From Gammaproteobacteria bacterium (GTDB taxonomy: Bacteria > Pseudomonadota > Gammaproteobacteria > Ga0077536), in assembly GCA_035325705.1 (NCBI GenBank), contig DAOKZI010000008.1, positions 61,451 through 125,450 of the forward strand: 64,000 nt of DNA, in the 5' to 3' direction. Under the pieces are notes generated by a model. It saw only the letters and a list, made by a program, of their open reading frames with translations, searched no databases and had not been told where the DNA came from. The position numbers and the translations under genes were made by a program. Below are positions 3,523-61,283 of the stretch, one piece after another (position 1 is the first letter of the stretch; each line of letters starts with the position of its first letter).

Positions 3523-3795
3523 GTGAAGAAACTGGGAGTGATGGCATTCGCGGCGCTGGTGCTCGGCGGCCTCGCGGGCTGCGCCGGCAACACCATCGTG
3601 CCGAGCTACGCGACCTCGAATCCGAACATCCAGGTCGGTGGCGACAAGCCGATCGACGTGGCGCCGACGATCGAGAACGCGGGCTCGTTCTGCCTGCAGG
3701 TGACCGAGCTGTGGCACGAGGACGGCAAGACGCCGGACGGCCAGAGGCTCTACGCGAAGGACACGCAGCGCAAGGTCGTGCCGTGCGAGCCGTGA
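3523..3795 (+). CDS. small lipoprotein
   Basis: GTG start after GAGGAC. The signal peptide MKKLGVMAFAALVLGGLAGC ends in a lipobox LAGC. Confidence 0.7.
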   Translation: MKKLGVMAFAALVLGGLAGCAGNTIVPSYATSNPNIQVGGDKPIDVAPTIENAGSFCLQVTELWHEDGKTPDGQRLYAKDTQRKVVPCEP

Positions 3796-3858
3796 GCTGA
3801 GCGCAGCGGGAATCGCGTACACTCCGGGCCTCCCCGCCATCCACAGGAGGCCGCCGCG

Positions 3859-5043
3859 ATGTCCGCCGCACTGCGCACCACGCTCGACAGCATACTCCGC
3901 TACACGACGAACAACGCCGGCGGCGCGCCGGGCGTCGTCGCGATGGCGACCGACCGCGAAGGCAATTTCTACGAAGGCGCGGCCGGCCGGCGCCAGCTCG
4001 GCCAGGACGCGCCGATGACGACCGACAGCGTGATGCTGCTCGCGTCGTGCACGAAGGCGGTGACGGGCGTCGCCGTCATGCAGCTCGTCGAGGAGGGACT
4101 CGTCGGGCTCGACGATCCGGCGCGCAAGTACGTGCCGGAGATCGGCGAATGCCGCGTGCTCACGGGCTTCGACGCCGCCGGCCAGCCGCTGCTACGCGCG
4201 CCGAAACGTGAGATCACGCTGCGCCACCTGATGCTCCACACGGCGGGGCTGGTCTACGAGTTCTTCAGCGCCGACGAGGCGCGCTATCGCGCGGCGGCCG
4301 GCGTGCCGTCGATCTTCGCGAGCTGCTTCGACGCGATCAAAAGCGTGATGATCTTCGATCCGGGTGAGGCTTGGGCCTACGGGCCGAACATCGACTGGCT
4401 CGGCAAGATCGTCGAAGCGCTGCGCGGCAAGCCGCTCGGCGCGGTATTTCGCGAATGCCTGTTCGAGCCGCTCGGCATGCAGGACATCGGCTTCGAAATG
4501 AGCCCGGCGATGCGCGCGCGGCTCGCCGTCGTGCATCAGCGCGCGCCGGACGGCGGGCTCACGCCGCCTCCCGAGCTCGTGCTGCCGCAGCCGCCGCTGA
4601 TGGACATGGGCGGCCACGGGCTGTATGCCACGATCGGCGAGTACATGAAGTTCATCCGCATGATCCTCAACGACGGCGACGGCCCGCACGGCCGCGTGCT
4701 CGAGGCGCGGACGGTCGCCGCGATGGTGCAGAACGGGCTCGGCGATTTGACGTGCAGCGCGTGGGAGTCGGCGATGCCGCCGCTCGCGAACAGCGGTGAT
4801 TTCTTTCCCGGCCTGCCGAAGTCCTGGGCCTACACCTTCCAGCGCATCGAGGAAGATGCGCCGACCGGCCGCCCGGCCGGCAGCCTGCACTGGGCCGGGA
4901 TCGCGAACTGCTATTACTGGATCGATCGCAAGAACGGCATCGGCGGCATGTGGGGATCGCAGGTGCTGCCGTTCATGGACATCGGCTCCTATCCCGGCTT
5001 CGTCGAGTTCGAGTCGGCCGTCTACCGTGCGCGGCGCCGCTGA
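3859..5043 (+). CDS. serine hydrolase, beta-lactamase/esterase (class C-like) family
   Basis: 394 aa with an SxxK motif (ASCTK) near residue 60 and an RBS CAGGAGG upstream. Confidence 0.9.
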   Translation: MSAALRTTLDSILRYTTNNAGGAPGVVAMATDREGNFYEGAAGRRQLGQDAPMTTDSVMLLASCTKAVTGVAVMQLVEEGLVGLDDPARKYVPEIGECRVLTGFDAAGQPLLRAPKREITLRHLMLHTAGLVYEFFSADEARYRAAAGVPSIFASCFDAIKSVMIFDPGEAWAYGPNIDWLGKIVEALRGKPLGAVFRECLFEPLGMQDIGFEMSPAMRARLAVVHQRAPDGGLTPPPELVLPQPPLMDMGGHGLYATIGEYMKFIRMILNDGDGPHGRVLEARTVAAMVQNGLGDLTCSAWESAMPPLANSGDFFPGLPKSWAYTFQRIEEDAPTGRPAGSLHWAGIANCYYWIDRKNGIGGMWGSQVLPFMDIGSYPGFVEFESAVYRARRR

Positions 5044-5787: not shown

Positions 5788-6186
5788 GTAGCCCGGAAGC
5801 GCAGCGAATCCGCGGTTCGGCGCCTCCGGGACTCATGCGTCCGAGCAGGGACCGTAGGTTGGGCTGACGCAGGAAGCCCAACAGAAGCTGGCACTGCGCG
5901 CTGCCATTCGCTCTCGCCGGGGATCGCTCGGTGTCGAGGCTCCCAAGTTGGGCTTCCTGCATCAGCCCAACGGTCATGACGCGCGCGTCACCCGCAGTCA
6001 TGAAAGAGGCGTGGTGAGCCCCCTCCCGGATTCCGCGCCGCTGCGCGCCGCTCCTTCCGGGCTACGAAGAAAGCAACGATCAAGACGGCGGCGTTCAGGC
6101 TTTTTCGCGGCACCCCACGAAGCTTGCGAGGCCCCGAATAATTCTTTTTCTCTCCGTGCCCTCCGTGTCCTCCGTGGCTGGATTGA
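5788..6186. repeat. REP mosaic (B-degenerate, D, D, F, C-inverted, E arm)
   Basis: A degenerate REP-B lies at 5788-5815. A D hairpin GTAG-GTTGGGCT-N9-AGCCCAAC is at 5854-5882 and a second D hairpin with complementary loop at 5947-5971. The F module TCATGACGCGCGCGTCA..CATGAAAGAGGCG is at 5974-6012. An inverted REP-C is at 6024-6065 and a single E arm (CTCCGTG 9-mers) at 6143-6186. Confidence 0.8.
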
Positions 6187-6215
6187 TCGGCGCTCGAAGT
6201 GGCACTAACCCCGGC

Positions 6216-7106
6216 TTACACCTCGTCGACTGCCGCCTGTGCGAGGCTCGCCAAGCTCACGAGGGTGATCTCGGCCGTGAAGAGCCGTTCGCCGCGCGCG
6301 GTGTAGGCGCGGCAGCGGTGCACCATGCGCGGCTGGCCGGCGGGCTCCTCGCTGACGACGAGATTCAGGCGATCGTTGCTGCGCAGACGCGCGAGCACCT
6401 CGCGATCGGTGGTGATGAGATGCTGGGCATAAATCATCGGCTCGCGCACGAAGTCGTGGCGGCGGTGGATGCCGCGCTCGAGCAGCGCGCTGGAGATCAG
6501 GCTCGCCGGGTAGAGCTCCGGAAACTGCACGCGATCCGCGAGCTCGTCGAAGTAGCGAAACGCATCGACGCCGGCGGCGGACAGGAAGTTCTTCGCGTTC
6601 GAGGTCAGCATGAACTTGCGCTTCAGGAACCACGCTCCGCCGGGCACGACGTGCCGGTCGGGCAGGCCATCGAGCGCCAGCGCGAAGCGGAGATCGTCGA
6701 TCGCATCGTCCTCGCCCGGCATCCGAGTCTCGGCGCGCAGGCTGCCGAGCACGGCGGCACGTCCGTGGCGTCTCAGCACGAAGCGGCTCGCGACGCCGTC
6801 GCCGTCGAGCGCGGCGCGCGCCGGCTTCACCTCGACGGCGAGCGGATCGCCGGCGCGCACGGCGTCGACGAAGCGCAGTTGCACGGTGCTGTAGCGATGA
6901 TAGTCGTGCACGAGGGCCGCGCGCCGCCACGCCTCGCGCACCGTCTCGACGATGAACGCGCCGAGCTGGAAGCCGAGCGCAATCGGGCCGCCGAAGGGAT
7001 TGCCGGCGATGTCCTGCCACTTGTGCTTGTCGTGGAAGGGATTGAAGTCGTCGGACGCGTAGCGCGCGACGTCGATGTGCAAGGGCGTGTAGACGATCTC
7101 GGCCAT
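6216..7106 (-). CDS. MaoC-like (hot-dog fold) dehydratase family protein
   Basis: I chose the ATG at 7104-7106 (MAEIVYTPL). YASDDFNPFHD resembles the MaoC hydratase motif. The 296 aa length suggests a double hot-dog. Confidence 0.75.
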   Translation of the reverse strand: MAEIVYTPLHIDVARYASDDFNPFHDKHKWQDIAGNPFGGPIALGFQLGAFIVETVREAWRRAALVHDYHRYSTVQLRFVDAVRAGDPLAVEVKPARAALDGDGVASRFVLRRHGRAAVLGSLRAETRMPGEDDAIDDLRFALALDGLPDRHVVPGGAWFLKRKFMLTSNAKNFLSAAGVDAFRYFDELADRVQFPELYPASLISSALLERGIHRRHDFVREPMIYAQHLITTDREVLARLRSNDRLNLVVSEEPAGQPRMVHRCRAYTARGERLFTAEITLVSLASLAQAAVDEV

Positions 7107-7158
7107 GTCCCGGCCCTCCCTGGACCCCCGACTTCTATCGGCCATGCGCCGCGATCTT

Positions 7159-7239
7159 GTAGCCCGGGTGCAGCGCGCAGCGCGGAACCCGGGATCGGAG
7201 GCTCCGATCCCGGGTTCCGCTACGCTGCACCCGGGCTAC
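7159..7239. repeat. REP-A inverted pair
   Basis: A forward unit (7159-7196) and an inverted unit (7206-7239) are separated by a 9-nt spacer. The CTAC end supplies the TAG stop of the downstream minus-strand lipoprotein gene. Confidence 0.85.
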
Positions 7240-8048
7240 GCGCGCGGCCGCCCGCTGACGTGCGCGGCGAGATCGCCGCCGAGGGCGGCGATGGCCTGCG
7301 CGATCTCGGCTTCGAAGCGCGCGCGGGCCGCGGCCGGATCGCGCGCGATCGGCAGCGGCCGGCCGCGATAGGCATAGCGGCGTTCGGGCGAGTCGGCGCC
7401 TTCGCCGCAGCGGCCGCTGCGCGCGCGGATCACGAGGACGAGGCGATACTGGAAGCCCGGCTCGAGCTCGAGCTCCAGGCGCACGACGTCGACGGCGGTC
7501 ACCGCGCGCGGGCGCGGATCGCCGGCGCGCAGGCAGCCGTCCGGGGCCGGCGCGTCGACTGCGACGGCGGCGTCGCCCATCGCGCCCAGGCGCGCGAGGG
7601 CATCCTCGACGATGCGCTGTCCCAGTGCGCTCGCATAGGACGGATCGGGCGCGAAGACCTGGCGCAGTGTCGCTTCGTCGGCCGCCGCGCTGCCGGGCTG
7701 CGACAGGGCCGTCACGGCGCTCTCGGTGACGCCGGCGACCGCCGCGCCGCCGAGCAGCACGCCGGCGCAGGGACCGAACAGCGGGCCCAACGCGGCGCAG
7801 AGTATCAGCGAGGACTCGACGGCGTGCTCGTACGGCAAGGGCTCGCCGGCGATGCCCGCGGCCCGGTACTGCGGACGCAGCCGGCCGCGGGTTTCGAAGC
7901 GCACCTCGCCGGCCGGTGCCGCGTAGAGCGCATGCGCGGCCGCTGCACCGGGCGAGGGCGGCGCAGCGGACGGCGCGTGCGCGCAGGCCGCGAGCAGCAG
8001 CGCCGCGCCGAGCAGCGGGTGCGCGATGGCGCGCGCGGCCGCGCTCAT
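7236..8048 (-). CDS. lipoprotein of unknown function, coupled to copD
   Basis: The internal ATG at 8046-8048 gives MSAAARAIAHPLLGAALLLAAC (signal peptide plus lipobox). It overlaps the copD stop as ATGA. The upstream part of ORF 7236..8336 is shadow sequence. Confidence 0.7.
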   Translation of the reverse strand: MSAAARAIAHPLLGAALLLAACAHAPSAAPPSPGAAAAHALYAAPAGEVRFETRGRLRPQYRAAGIAGEPLPYEHAVESSLILCAALGPLFGPCAGVLLGGAAVAGVTESAVTALSQPGSAAADEATLRQVFAPDPSYASALGQRIVEDALARLGAMGDAAVAVDAPAPDGCLRAGDPRPRAVTAVDVVRLELELEPGFQYRLVLVIRARSGRCGEGADSPERRYAYRGRPLPIARDPAAARARFEAEIAQAIAALGGDLAAHVSGRPRA

Positions 8049-9646
8049 TCGCGATAGAAGAGCAGCAGGAAGCCGATCATCACGAGACTGCCCGTCCACA
8101 GCACGCCCGTGATGCGCGGCGCCGGCGGCGGCAGGCGCAGCTCCAGCCAGCGGCCGATGCCGGCGAGAATCGCGAACACGGCGATGCTCGCGTGCGAGAC
8201 CTCGATCAGAAACTCCTGCTTGGTGCCGAGCGCGGTGTGCGTGTGCGTCAGCATCACGGCGCCGCCGAGAAAGCACAGCAAGGGAAAGGTGTAGCGCCAG
8301 CGCGTGGCGGCCAGCGTGCCGACCTGCACGCGCCACTCCATCACGCCGATCACGAGCGGCAGCAAGGTCGCGAGTCGATGTTGCAGGACCGACGGGCTGC
8401 GCATCTGTTCGAAGAAGCCTTCTGGCCCGAGCGGCCAGCCGGTCGGCTGCGCCGTCAGCAGCAGGAACAGCGTGAACGGCAGGAACACCAGCGGCCAGTG
8501 GCGCGCCCAGTGCGCGAGCCGGAGCTTGTGCAGGATCGCGAGCACGCCGATCAGCAGCACGAAGGCGCCGGACATGTTGTGATTGAAATTGCTCTGGATG
8601 CGCTCGGTCGCCGTCGACGGGTTGAAGAAGTCGAGCGGCGAGGAGTAATCGGCCATCAGCGCGGCGTAGTCCGGCGGCCTGAGCTGCGGCATCTTCACCT
8701 TCAGCGTGTCGACGACTTCGGCGAAGCTCGCGCGCTCACTCGCGAGATCGGCGGCCGGCGGCGTCGCGGCGAGGCTCGCGCCGAGCAGCACGATCGCGAG
8801 CAGCGCGCAGGTCTCGGCTTCGATGTAGACCGGTACGCGCGTCATCGCGCCGCGCGCATCGCCGTGCCGGCGCCAGCGGTGGGTGTGCACGAAGTTCAGC
8901 CCGGCGAGCGACAGCGCCATCGCGAGCAGCAGCCATTTCGCGATCACCATGATGCCGTAATTGGTGCCGATGACCGAGGCCCAGTCGCCGACGTAGTGAG
9001 CCGCGATGTAGAGCCCGGCGCCGACCAGCGTCAGCACGCAGGCGAGGCCGATGGGCGAGAAGCGTGCGAGCAGGCGCGGCCACAGCGTCGAATCCGCCGC
9101 GCGTCGCGCGTCCGTGCACAGCAGGAGACCGATCGCGCCGCCCAGCCACACGACGGCCGCGAGCTGGTGGAGGATGGTGCTCACCATCAGCGGCACGACG
9201 TGCTCGAGCCGGCTGACCGCATGGACGGCCCAGGCGCCGCTGACGATCGTCGCGAGCATCGAGCTCAGGGTCAGCCGCCAGCGCGTCGCACTCGCCGGAC
9301 GGCCGCGCAGCCAGGCGAGCAGGCCGGCGTAGCCGATCAGCAGCACGAGCCGGACCAGGCTCGCGTGCGCGAAGCTCGTATCGAGATAATCCCCGAACGG
9401 CCAATGGCCGTCGTCTCCGGCGAGCGCCCACGGCCCGACGAGCAGCACGCCGGCAAAGGCAGCGATCGCAAGCACGGCCGCCCACTGCGCCACGCGCAGC
9501 ACGCGCAGCTCATAGGGTGTCGCCGTCGCGGCGACGGCGGGCCGCAGCACGCCGAGCACGAAGACGATGCAGCCCATGCTCGCCGCGAGCCCGACGAGCG
9601 CCAGCGCGTGCAGCAGTACGTTCAGATAGCTGGCGAGCTGGACCAT
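8045..9646 (-). CDS. copD: copper resistance protein CopD family, long form with extra C-terminal membrane module
   Basis: 533 aa polytopic membrane protein directly downstream of copC. The N-terminal roughly 290 aa are CopD-like. The C-terminal roughly 240 aa add His-rich TM segments (MLTHTHTA, EVSHAS). Confidence 0.85.
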   Translation of the reverse strand: MVQLASYLNVLLHALALVGLAASMGCIVFVLGVLRPAVAATATPYELRVLRVAQWAAVLAIAAFAGVLLVGPWALAGDDGHWPFGDYLDTSFAHASLVRLVLLIGYAGLLAWLRGRPASATRWRLTLSSMLATIVSGAWAVHAVSRLEHVVPLMVSTILHQLAAVVWLGGAIGLLLCTDARRAADSTLWPRLLARFSPIGLACVLTLVGAGLYIAAHYVGDWASVIGTNYGIMVIAKWLLLAMALSLAGLNFVHTHRWRRHGDARGAMTRVPVYIEAETCALLAIVLLGASLAATPPAADLASERASFAEVVDTLKVKMPQLRPPDYAALMADYSSPLDFFNPSTATERIQSNFNHNMSGAFVLLIGVLAILHKLRLAHWARHWPLVFLPFTLFLLLTAQPTGWPLGPEGFFEQMRSPSVLQHRLATLLPLVIGVMEWRVQVGTLAATRWRYTFPLLCFLGGAVMLTHTHTALGTKQEFLIEVSHASIAVFAILAGIGRWLELRLPPPAPRITGVLWTGSLVMIGFLLLFYRE

Positions 9647-9695
9647 GACTCGGGCAAGGGGGCGGTATGCGGCAGGAGGATGATCGCCGACGCGC

Positions 9696-10070
9696 TCAGG
9701 GCAAGCCCTTCAGCGTGAAACGCAGCACCCCCTGCGTGGCATGTCCGTCCGTCGCGAGCACCTTGTAATGCAGCGTGTAAGCGCCTTCGGGCAGATCGGC
9801 CGGCAGCGCCGCGCGTACGCGTGAGGGCTCGGGCGCGACGTCGGTCAGCGTCTGGGTCGCACCGTCGGCGCGATCGAGCTTCACGTGCACGAGCTTCTTC
9901 TCGAGCTTGGCGTTGAAACGCAGCTCGATCTCCGGCGGCACGCGCGTCAGGACGGCGCGATCGGACGGTGTCGACGCGACGACGATCGCATGCGCCGAGG
10001 CGAGCCGCGGAAACGGCAGCGCGAGGAGGGCGTAGACCAGGGCCGCGTAGCGGAAACTTCGACGTATCAT
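9696..10070 (-). CDS. copC: copper resistance protein CopC
   Basis: 124 aa. The signal peptide ends ..LASA, followed by the mature N-terminus HAIVVASTP (N-terminal His typical of CopC/YobA). HYKVLATDGH is also present. Confidence 0.9.
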   Translation of the reverse strand: MIRRSFRYAALVYALLALPFPRLASAHAIVVASTPSDRAVLTRVPPEIELRFNAKLEKKLVHVKLDRADGATQTLTDVAPEPSRVRAALPADLPEGAYTLHYKVLATDGHATQGVLRFTLKGLP

Positions 10071-10172
10071 CGGCGAATCTTAGCGGATCTCGACGCCGCG
10101 GCGGCGACTTCACGGGCAAGGATGTCGCGCGGCGTCCCGTTGCAGCAGAATGACGTCAACGGAGGTGAGCCG

Positions 10173-10568
10173 ATGAGCGTTCGCATCGTACGTTTGGGAA
10201 GTCCGCGCCGTCGCGGCGAAGGACTGCGTCTCGGCACCGTGCGCCATCCGCCGCGCGGCGTGCCGAAAGCCGAGTTCGCCCGCCGCAATTTCTATGATCT
10301 CTGGCTGCCGACCCTCGCCCCGAGCCAGGACCTGCTGCGCACCAGCGGCGGAGGCGGCGACGTCTCGCAGGTCTGGCCGGCCTTTGCGCGCGGCTATCGC
10401 GCCGAGATGAAAGCCCCGGACGCCGCGCATCTCCTCGATCTGCTCGCCGCCCTCTCGCACACCACCAATTTCTCGGTCGGCTGCTACTGCGAGGACGAGA
10501 CTTACTGCCACCGCTCGCTGCTGCGCGAGCTGCTGGCCAAACGCGGCGCGCGCATCGCCGCCACGTAG
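10173..10568 (+). CDS. DUF488 family protein
   Basis: The ATG lies 6 nt after GGAGGTGAG. WLPTLAPS and the CYCEDETYCHRSLL motif are typical of DUF488. The upstream part of ORF 9885..10568 is shadow of copC. Confidence 0.85.
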   Translation: MSVRIVRLGSPRRRGEGLRLGTVRHPPRGVPKAEFARRNFYDLWLPTLAPSQDLLRTSGGGGDVSQVWPAFARGYRAEMKAPDAAHLLDLLAALSHTTNFSVGCYCEDETYCHRSLLRELLAKRGARIAAT

Positions 10569-10582
10569 CCGCCGTAACCGAC

Positions 10583-10674
10583 GTAGCCCGGGTGGAGCGC
10601 GCAGCGCGCAAGCCGGGATCTTTCGGCACATCGATAGGCCGATCCCGGGTTCCGCTACGCTGCACCCGGGCTAC
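10583..10674. repeat. REP-A inverted pair (92-bp MITE-like unit)
   Basis: A forward unit (10583-10620), the spacer TTTCGGCACATCGATAGGCC and an inverted unit (10641-10674). It is a near copy of 57-148. A further degenerate unit lies at about 10721-10752. Confidence 0.85.
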
Positions 10675-10752
10675 GAAGTGCGCTAGGTAATTCGGAGATT
10701 CGACGGCGCGCGATTGCAAAGGCCGCGGGTTTCGTTACGCTGCACCCGGACC

Positions 10753-11217
10753 ATGCCCCGATCGTTTTCTTTTCATCAGGATCTGCCCGTGGCGCACGTA
10801 TTCTCGATAGCCGAGCGCGAAGCCTTTCTCGCCGAGGTGCGCGTCGCCGTCGTCGCGATCGCGGCTCGAGATCGCGGACCGCTCGCGGTGCCGGTCTGGT
10901 ACGCCTATGCGCCGGGCGGGGAGATCGGCCTGTGGATGGACGGCGCGTCGGCGAAAGTGCGGGAGCTGCGGCGCGAGGGGCGGCTGACGCTCTGCGTGCA
11001 GGACGCGACGCGGCCTTATCGCTATGTCAGCGTCGAAGGGCCGGTGACGGGCATCGCGCCGATCGACGTCGAGCGCGAACTGCGGCCGCTGATCGCGCGC
11101 TACCTCGGCGCCGACGCGGTCGAGGCTTATCTCGCCGGCTTCGGCGGCGCGGACGGCGTGCGCGGCGACGTATGGGTACGCGTCGCGCCCGCGCACTGGC
11201 GCGCGGAACAACTGTGA
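10753..11217 (+). CDS. pyridoxamine 5'-phosphate oxidase family (PPOX-class) protein
   Basis: I chose the ATG at 10753 because the track start 10714 falls inside a REP. The pattern VAVVAI..GPLAVPVWYAY..G...W resembles split-barrel flavin/F420 binders. Confidence 0.7.
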   Translation: MPRSFSFHQDLPVAHVFSIAEREAFLAEVRVAVVAIAARDRGPLAVPVWYAYAPGGEIGLWMDGASAKVRELRREGRLTLCVQDATRPYRYVSVEGPVTGIAPIDVERELRPLIARYLGADAVEAYLAGFGGADGVRGDVWVRVAPAHWRAEQL

Positions 11218-11251
11218 GGGCGCGCGCGGCGCGCATCGATCGCTCGCGTCC

Positions 11252-60118: not shown

Positions 60119-60219
60119 GCGGGCATTATACGGGCCGTGTGCGAGGTCAGGATGACGCGCGGGTGGACTTGCGCGCGGCTTTGCTCGATTCTGCCGGCGT
60201 CCAGTCTCGGGAGTCCGCC

Positions 60220-61095
60220 ATGCCCGTTCCCTACATGGAAACCATCGCGCGCCGCTACGCGCAGCTCGGCTATCAGGCCTACCGCTGGTTCGCGGCCGAC
60301 GCGCCCGCGGCCTTCACGCCGCTCGCCAAGCCGCTGGCGCAGGCCAGGCTCGGCATGCTGTCGAGCGCCGGCGTCTATGCGCTAGGCCAGGTCGCCTACC
60401 ACTACCGCGACGACTGCTCGATCCGCGAGATCGCGGCGACGACGCCGGACGCCAAGCTGCGTTTCTCGCACATCACGGAAAACTACCTCGTCGATCCGCG
60501 CCGCGATCCGGGCTGCATCTTCCCGCTGCGCGCGCTGCGCGAGGCGGTCGCGCAGGGTCTGATCGGCCGGCTCGCCGACGTCGTGCTGTCGTGCATGGGC
60601 GGCGTCTATTCGCAGCGCCGCGTGCGCGAGGACGTGGCGCCCGCCGTGCTGGCGGCGATGCAGCGCCAGGAGGTCGACGCCGCCTTGCTGATCGCGATGT
60701 GACCCGTGTGTCACCAGACCGTGAGTCTGGTCGCACGGCACCTCGAAGCGCACGGCATTTCGACGGTCTGCGTCGGCAGCGCCTACGACATCCTGGCCGC
60801 GGCGCGTCCGCCGCGCGCTTGCTACGTCGACTATCCGCTGGGCCATACGACCGGCAAACCCTTCGACCGGGCCGATCAGGCGAGCATCCTGCGCGCGGCG
60901 CTCGCCCTGCTGGAAAAGGCGACGGGACCGGACACGCTGCTCACCTTGCCCAATCGCTGGGGCGACGACGCATGGCGGGAAGAAGCCGCCTCGACGGAGG
61001 CGAAAGACACGCGCCAGCCGCGCGACGAGACGCCTCAATTCCAACTGCCCGCCGATCGCGCCGCGGCGATTGCGAGCGGCGCCTTCACGCCGTGA
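60220..61095 (+). CDS. GrdB/PrdB-family reductase-like protein, candidate selenoprotein (in-frame TGA at 60700-60702)
   Basis: Track ORFs 60139..60702 and 60706..61095 share one frame and are separated only by TGA. Read-through gives LLIAM-U-PVCHQTVSLVARHLEAHGIST. The ATG at 60220 lies 7 nt after GGGAG. The product would be 291 codons including the UGA. Confidence 0.65.
60708..60736 (+). promoter_or_regulatory. SECIS-like recoding hairpin candidate
   Basis: The upper stem ACCAGAC / GUCUGGU (60713-60719 with 60725-60731) carries the loop CGUGA and starts 10 nt after the UGA. A lower stem (60708-60711 with 60733-60736) follows a C-C mismatch. Confidence 0.4.
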
Positions 61096-61125
61096 TCGGA
61101 AGAACACGCCCCAGATCAATCTTCC

Positions 61126-61204
61126 GTAGCTTGGGCTGACGAAGGAAGTCCAACGTCTTCGTCGCAGCGCCGAACGTTGGGCTTCCTTCGTCAGCCCAAG
61201 CTAC
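61126..61204. repeat. D-hairpin inverted pair
   Basis: GTAGCTTGGGCTGACGAAGGAAGTCCAAC lies at 61126-61154 and GTTGGGCTTCCTTCGTCAGCCCAAGCTAC at 61176-61204. A degenerate REP follows at about 61224-61250. Confidence 0.85.
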
Positions 61205-61283
61205 GGTGTTCACCTGCGGTGTTCGTAGCCCGAACGAGCGCACACCCCGGGCGGCCGCTGCCGGCGGCCGCGCGGGTTGGGGC

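Follow-up and report, generated by a model that had tools for sequence, protein, structure and literature searches.

Two open reading frames that lie in the same frame and abut near the 3' end of the 64,000-nt window (the whole stretch of DNA analysed here) raise the question of whether they represent two genes, a decayed gene, or a single gene whose internal UGA is read as selenocysteine (Sec). The ORF listing gives the halves separately, at 60139/60220-60702 and 60706-61095 of the forward strand, with a GTG at 60706, 4 nt past the TGA, as the start of a 129-aa ORF. The initial annotation held that the two are parted by the TGA alone, and this was confirmed: from the ATG at 60220, 160 sense codons lead to the TGA at 60700-60702, which is followed by 130 in-frame sense codons and the stop at 61093-61095. 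The coding sequence of the PrdB-like candidate selenoprotein, with the stop counted in, thus spans 60220-61095 (forward strand), and its read-through translation has 291 residues, with the motif ...LLIAM-U-PVCHQTVSLVARHLEAHGISTV at the junction. The ATG is backed by the N-termini of homologues in the alignment (MPVxYM...), and a Shine-Dalgarno-like GGGAG, read from the sequence, is found 6 nt 5' of it (60209-60213, forward strand). By column comparison, UGA codon 161 (60700-60702, forward strand) would encode Sec as the first residue of U-P-V-C-H. As had been anticipated, gene callers split the locus into 160 aa and 129 aa, both on the source contig and in relatives; in essentially all metagenome-assembled genomes examined, the gene and its relatives stand as a 160-aa and a 129-aa "hypothetical protein". 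Judged from comparative sequence analysis, the two adjacent "genes" at 60220-61095 are almost certainly one, with the internal UGA read as selenocysteine. Five more strongly coding same-frame ORF pairs parted by one TGA are present in the window (at 3793, 18202, 28772, 29855 and 49822); as selenoprotein candidates these were rejected, since their junctions have no redox motif and they resemble ordinary abutting genes.

For the family assignment, profile matches were scored on the 291-residue protein with Cys in place of the stop. A match to TIGR04483 (PrdB; E = 1.2e-35, 123.1 bits) runs in one stretch over residues 28-246 and spans the TGA, which bears out the membership in the PrdB/GrdB superfamily proposed in the initial annotation. 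This score falls far short of the 300 bits that the model requires as its equivalog cut-off. The GrdF, GrdH, GrdB and TIGR01918 profiles gave weak matches in the region of the Sec site, with E-values from 1e-7 to 1e-3 and TIGR01918 scoring 20.3 versus a cut-off of 65.45, and the Pfam GRDB model (PF07355) reached 15.9 versus a gathering threshold of 22, its match covering positions 283-345 of the 347 in the profile and stopping at residue 158. None of the curated Pfam or NCBIfam models attains its cut-off on the window protein. In all matches examined, the alignment to PF07355 runs out immediately before Sec, at profile position 344-347 of 347. The model was apparently built from proteins cut off at the UGA, which would account for its weak scores on these proteins.

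A homologue search covering 5.8 billion proteins recovered about 50 full-length homologues (288-297 aa, 50-67% identical) and more than 60 fragments of exactly 160 aa (65-98% identical), the latter ending in ...LL(V/I)(A/S)M. When aligned, the full-length homologues have Cys in the TGA column (M-C-P-V-C-H-Q); the nearest Cys form is 67% identical to the window protein, and every closer relative is truncated at the TGA. One full-length homologue (P0003) has Arg at the Sec/Cys position (M-R-P-V-C-H-Q), which is consistent with a change from TGA to CGA in an inactive variant, or with a sequencing or assembly error. Among 1.84 billion cluster representatives (50%-identity clusters), 613 matched the N-terminal fragment. 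Where the match reaches the end of the fragment, 73 of 84 representatives stop exactly at the Sec site, and the 10 distant ones that continue past it have Cys in nine cases and Ser in one. Another distant representative of 593 aa (P0198) has a Gly_reductase domain (PrdA/GrdE-type) fused to a GRDB domain, and its sequence breaks off at the Sec site.

Annotated prdB genes for comparison were found by tblastn against plasmid records. The translation of the Terrisporobacter prdB (L091) reads ...LLTAG*GTCHRSAVLVQRAIEEAGIPTV, and the prdB of Peptoclostridium acidaminophilum gives the same reading at the Sec site, so the clostridial Sec context given in the initial annotation (TAG-U-GTCHRSAV.VQRAIEE.GIPT) was right. 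In a MAFFT alignment, the TGA of the window shares a column with the annotated Sec of both clostridial proteins (AM-U-PVCH-Q / AG-U-GTCH-R), and Cys164, His165, Arg173, Glu176 and Gly179 are invariant in all eight sequences aligned with true PrdB. The UGA column is equivalent to the Sec/Cys column of the family, being occupied by Sec in clostridial PrdB and by Cys in the full-length homologues.

These results could be read as pointing to a genuine D-proline reductase PrdB whose PrdA partner is encoded at another place in the genome: of the curated models, TIGR04483 matches best, at the E-value given above, the protein has the U-x-x-C-H motif and Sec column of PrdB, and several homologues are named "D-proline reductase (dithiol) PrdB" by JGI. 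We consider this very unlikely, given the 123 bits against a cut-off of 300, the identity of only 28-29% to clostridial PrdB, the extra N-terminus, and a conserved C-terminal extension of ~45 residues. Moreover, true prdB adjoins prdA, as in Terrisporobacter (L091), where prdB is two genes after prdA, whereas tblastn with Terrisporobacter PrdA gave zero matches in the window and in 89 fetched loci (972 kb), which upholds the earlier statement that no prdA is nearby. The same holds for grdA and grdE, which had also been reported as missing from the neighbourhood: as far as labels go, neither GRDA (PF04723) nor Gly_reductase (PF09338) is present among the Pfam-labelled neighbours in six loci, one of them on the source contig. 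The gene occurs in proteobacteria, and genes for a caa3 cytochrome oxidase are found on its source contig, the 229-kb ENA ERZ794915 NODE_26, at 6-10 kb from the selenoprotein gene, which points to an aerobic host. Finally, the recurrent neighbours differ from those of prdB, being either an acyl-CoA dehydrogenase with a CoA-transferase III or a methylamine-dehydrogenase-like cluster (see below). By the tests run, which placed it below the PrdB, GrdB and Pfam cut-offs and found no PrdA, the window protein is not a D-proline reductase.

The fate of the codon itself was followed in other genomes. With each GTDB species represented by one genome, a scan identified 342 genomes with a relative, and the analysis was carried out on the best 80 of these 342 loci, all of them from uncultured Gamma-, Beta- (Burkholderiales) and Alphaproteobacteria. 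Codon 161 is TGA in 78 of these 80, TGC in one and TGT in one; orthologues thus carry either TGA or Cys at this codon. In 79 of the 80, the frame after the TGA continues for 110 codons or more without a stop, and the exception ends at a contig edge. For random pairs among 80 TGA forms, the median dN/dS is 0.233 over the 140 codons before the TGA versus 0.238 over codons +11 to +124, i.e., a single frame is under selection on both sides of the codon. Equal dN/dS and an open frame together rule out a pseudogene, and two independent genes become very unlikely. In addition, the AlphaFold model of the closest Cys homologue (P0001, 67% identity) is one compact alpha/beta chain (pLDDT 90, pTM 0.90). 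A Foldseek search of this model against the PDB returned nothing at E <= 0.001 (best TM 0.34), and no PrdB or GrdB relative was found in the PDB by sequence; the fold offered no basis for transferring a function.

An alternative in which the UGA terminates translation, and the 129-aa ORF from the GTG at 60706 is translated separately or never, would agree with the 160-aa and 129-aa calls, with a potential start only 4 nt past the stop, and with the lack of visible Sec machinery in the window. It is nonetheless even less probable than a true D-proline reductase. The TGA is kept in 78 of 80 species with selection equal on both halves, and the split would cut through the invariant C/U-P-V-C-H motif, in a single-domain protein that is continuous in the Cys homologues and modelled as one compact chain (pLDDT 90). 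Furthermore, the hairpin that follows the codon is maintained only where that codon is TGA.

This hairpin, of SECIS type, was examined by RNA folding and covariation. Folding of 60697-60760 gave a 7-bp stem (60713-60719 with 60725-60731) closed by the 5-nt loop CGUGA (60720-60724), the whole element spanning 60713-60731 of the forward strand and beginning 10 nt after the UGA. It sits exactly where the initial annotation had placed it, and it is selected in the TGA forms. The fold energy is unremarkable, with z = -1.7 and 14 of 200 shuffles folding as well in this DNA of 69% GC; the significance of the hairpin thus rests on the comparison with relatives and not on the single sequence. Rfam (4227 families) gave no gathering-level match in the window, and the weak matches near the hairpin (E <= 10) are unrelated to Sec. 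Pairing was scored on an ungapped alignment of 69 TGA-form sequences, in which the seven pairs of the upper stem are formed in ~99% of cells. Compensatory changes are found at pair 18-34, from C-G to U-A in 17 sequences, and at pair 21-31, from G-C to A-U in five, and go through synonymous or conservative codon changes. When partners were slid by 1-3 columns, pairing fell from 85% to 23-42%. A lower stem that would extend the hairpin (60704-60710 with 60732-60738; element 60704-60738, forward strand) had also been proposed. It is predicted in the fold of the window sequence, but is not conserved in the family: its pairs form in 16-59 of 68 sequences (16-38 of 68 for pairs 8-42, 9-41 and 12-38), with no compensatory change.

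Constraint on the codons shows the same confinement to the TGA forms. Over 80 sequences, the synonymous entropy at third positions is 0 bits at codons +6 to +9 (ACC GUG xGU yUG) and 0.34 at codon +5, and rises to 1.6-2.0 bits at +1, +2, +11 and +12. Of the 80 TGA forms, 71 have the complete seven-pair stem and the remaining nine have six of its pairs, while a complete stem is found in none of seven Cys forms. Since the Cys-form genes differ in amino acid at codons +6 to +9, the protein itself has no need for those residues. The loop reads C-G-U-G-N, with its G residues kept in the TGA forms, and a small apical loop containing G is a hallmark of bacterial SECIS elements (PMC1088965). In the true prdB genes, a hairpin starts 12 nt after the UGA, over homologous codons. 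Going by these alignments, conservation of the hairpin as an RNA element is confined to the TGA forms, and its pairing is specific to genes with UGA at codon 161.

With regard to the decoding machinery, the 64-kb window contains no tRNA gene of any kind and no SelA, SelB or SelD homologue, and the extra 6.5 kb of the source contig likewise contains no SelA, SelB or SelD homologue. In a relative, the Sec machinery is encoded right beside the gene: in L054 (region 6001-11249), the gene at 6001-6870 is followed by tRNA-Sec (6887-6982, minus strand), selB and selA. In L028 (region 3666-4667), selD is 1.3 kb upstream of the homologue. A SelO gene is found near the homologues of the Roseomonas plasmid (L097) and of L087, both Cys-form loci, an adjacency that is not recurrent. 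A stop at UGA tends to be leaky when the next base is C, and here that base is an invariant C. Simple read-through, or decoding as Cys, Trp or another residue without SelB, is barely credible all the same, as this C belongs to an invariant Pro codon, a selected structured element stands at SECIS spacing, L054 has tRNA-Sec, selB and selA next to the gene, and the family had been independently placed among the selenoproteins (PMC1088965, PMC2398784).

Taken with these data, it is highly probable that 60220-61095 is a single gene whose product is a cytoplasmic selenoprotein of ~32 kDa belonging to the PrdB/GrdB superfamily, in which UGA-161 is recoded, Sec161 and Cys164 form a redox pair, and no PrdA is required. 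From established bacterial Sec biology, SelB carrying Sec-tRNA(Sec) would be expected to bind the hairpin 10 nt past UGA-161, and through the bound SelB the codon would be decoded as selenocysteine and not as a stop. By analogy with D-proline reductase PrdB, Sec161 and Cys164 of the U-P-V-C-H motif would then constitute the redox-active pair: the selenolate would attack the substrate, Cys164 would resolve the adduct to a selenenylsulfide, and a dithiol reductant would presumably regenerate the enzyme. The dependence on SelB, the selenenylsulfide cycle and the nature of the reductant are what we infer from those systems, and the catalytic cycle is carried over from a PrdB at 28-29% identity with the PrdA partner absent. 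As the protein would have no need of PrdA, the pyruvoyl subunit, D-proline is most probably not its substrate.

Gene neighbourhoods offer leads to the role of the protein. In the window, the gene is divergent from an operon encoding MlaE(+STAS), an ABC ATPase and MlaD, which agrees with the Mla-like lipid transporter initially described at this place. This MlaE/ABC/MlaD operon, along with downstream BrkB and VWA-CoxE genes, is common only to the four closest relatives. A REP-like palindrome at 61124-61206, 28 nt past the stop of the selenoprotein gene, has 33-nt arms that are 97% complementary and a 17-nt spacer. Its 20-nt core, GCTTGGGCTGACGAAGGAAG, recurs at 5857, 13829/13875, 34493 and 35309, with 0 occurrences expected by chance, and the palindrome may act as a terminator or an mRNA stabiliser.

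Clustering of ORFs across 82 loci revealed no universal partner, the top flanking gene cluster being present in no more than 19 of the 82, but two contexts recur. The first, in ~11 loci, consists of an IclR regulator, an acyl-CoA dehydrogenase and the gene, with a CoA-transferase III and a Zn-ADH divergent from them; it includes loci with Sec (L023, L035, L042, L045, L051, L054) and with Cys (L047, L087, L088), as well as L089 (4784-6891), where the CoA-transferase gene and the start of the homologue overlap. Overall, a CoA-transferase III is encoded within 6 kb in 16 of 87 loci. The second context, in 10-13 loci, is a methylamine-dehydrogenase-like (TTQ) cluster, mauB-mauE-mauD-mauA plus a small ORF, directly upstream and on the same strand. 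It encodes the heavy chain (PF06433), MauE, a MauD-like thioredoxin, the light chain (PF02975) and the product of the small ORF, with the Sec homologue last, and was identified in L021 (2628-6870), L022, L037, L039, L040, L049, L052, L059, L064, L072 and L073, as well as in L012 and L015, where it is cut by contig ends. In L021, a stop/start overlap is found. The small ORF between mauA and the gene has no Pfam match, and our literature search retrieved no paper tying methylamine dehydrogenase to a selenoprotein. In addition, on plasmid pOT1-1 of Haematobacter massiliensis (L093, 2153-5888), a Cys homologue with 38% identity comes directly after the gene for a 901-residue protein of the class-III PLP aminotransferase fold.

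We take these recurrent contexts as leads to function and not as proof; the selenoprotein status itself is not new in kind, and the operon contexts are the most useful new, and testable, leads to the real role of the PrdA-less proteins in aerobes. One tentative possibility is that the clade of the window gene comprises PrdA-independent selenoenzymes of aerobic Proteobacteria which act on a new substrate and are not proline reductases, the Sec/Cys pair carrying out reductive cleavage of C-N (or C-X) bonds in substrates whose activation depends either on a CoA thioester or on a carbonyl cofactor different from pyruvoyl. If true, such PrdA-independent cleavage would give the aerobic metabolism of amines or acyl-CoA a new step that depends on selenium.

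Among known systems, the likeness to GrdB, GrdF and GrdH consists of distant homology around the Sec site and of a redox-active Sec followed by Cys. GrdB is larger (~435 aa versus 291 aa) and has the motif U-x-x-C-x-x-C (PMC13188914), whereas the window motif, U-P-V-C-H-Q-T, has no third Cys, and the window protein falls below every Grd cut-off. With the D-proline reductase PrdB of Clostridia (TIGR04483; Kabisch et al. 1999, as cited in PMC13188914), it shares the superfamily, the Sec column in U-x-x-C-H and a hairpin 10-12 nt after the UGA. At 28-29% identity, it is ~50 residues longer than PrdB and has conserved motifs of its own, with ~20 extra residues at the N-terminus and the conserved C-terminal extension of ~45 residues (W..W..D.R.PRDETPQFQ..DR.AA). 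In addition, clostridial prdB is found beside prdA, whereas the window gene has neither prdA nor prdC as a neighbour and belongs to a family whose hosts are aerobic proteobacteria.

The closest known counterparts are environmental sequences. In the Sargasso Sea, "proline reductase PrdB" (U-x-x-C) was reported as the third most abundant selenoprotein family, with 42 Sec and 1 Cys sequences (Zhang, Fomenko and Gladyshev 2005, PMC1088965), and in GOS the "PrdB" family was again among the top ones, with 235 Sec and 110 Cys sequences (Zhang and Gladyshev 2008, PMC2398784). PrdA is never named in the GOS paper and both studies file the family under PrdB, a name under which recent reviews give the clostridial D-proline reductase alone. 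In the Sargasso supplement (PMC1088965), the U-PVCHQ motif appears 14 times, the two entries examined carry it in proteins labelled PrdB, and in one of these the TGA is followed by CCAGTTTGCCACCAGACCGTGAGTTTGG, the same hairpin core. Some Sargasso "PrdB" selenoproteins thus resemble the window gene in having the in-frame TGA in U-P-V-C-H-Q and the hairpin core CCAGACCGUGAG(U)yUGG directly after it, and the window protein is 44% identical to AACY01093821 (BLASTP, E = 9e-47). The features of the environmental "PrdB" family, namely a PrdB-homologous ORF with a TGA in U-x-x-C and then a bacterial SECIS, are all present in the window gene.

Regarding novelty, the selenoprotein proposed in the initial annotation is real, but it is less new than was implied, as U-x-x-C proteins of PrdB type from aerobic waters were published in 2005 and 2008. 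This family, which ranks in oxic waters with the most abundant families of selenoproteins, has for two decades been known under the name of a strictly anaerobic Stickland enzyme, without the obligatory partner of that enzyme. Since it has been recognised computationally since 2005, the window gene is an added member of a recognised selenoprotein family; and, since the motif CMGG[VI]YSQRR of the window clade is found in no published Sargasso sequence, it belongs to a sister subfamily of the Sargasso proteins.
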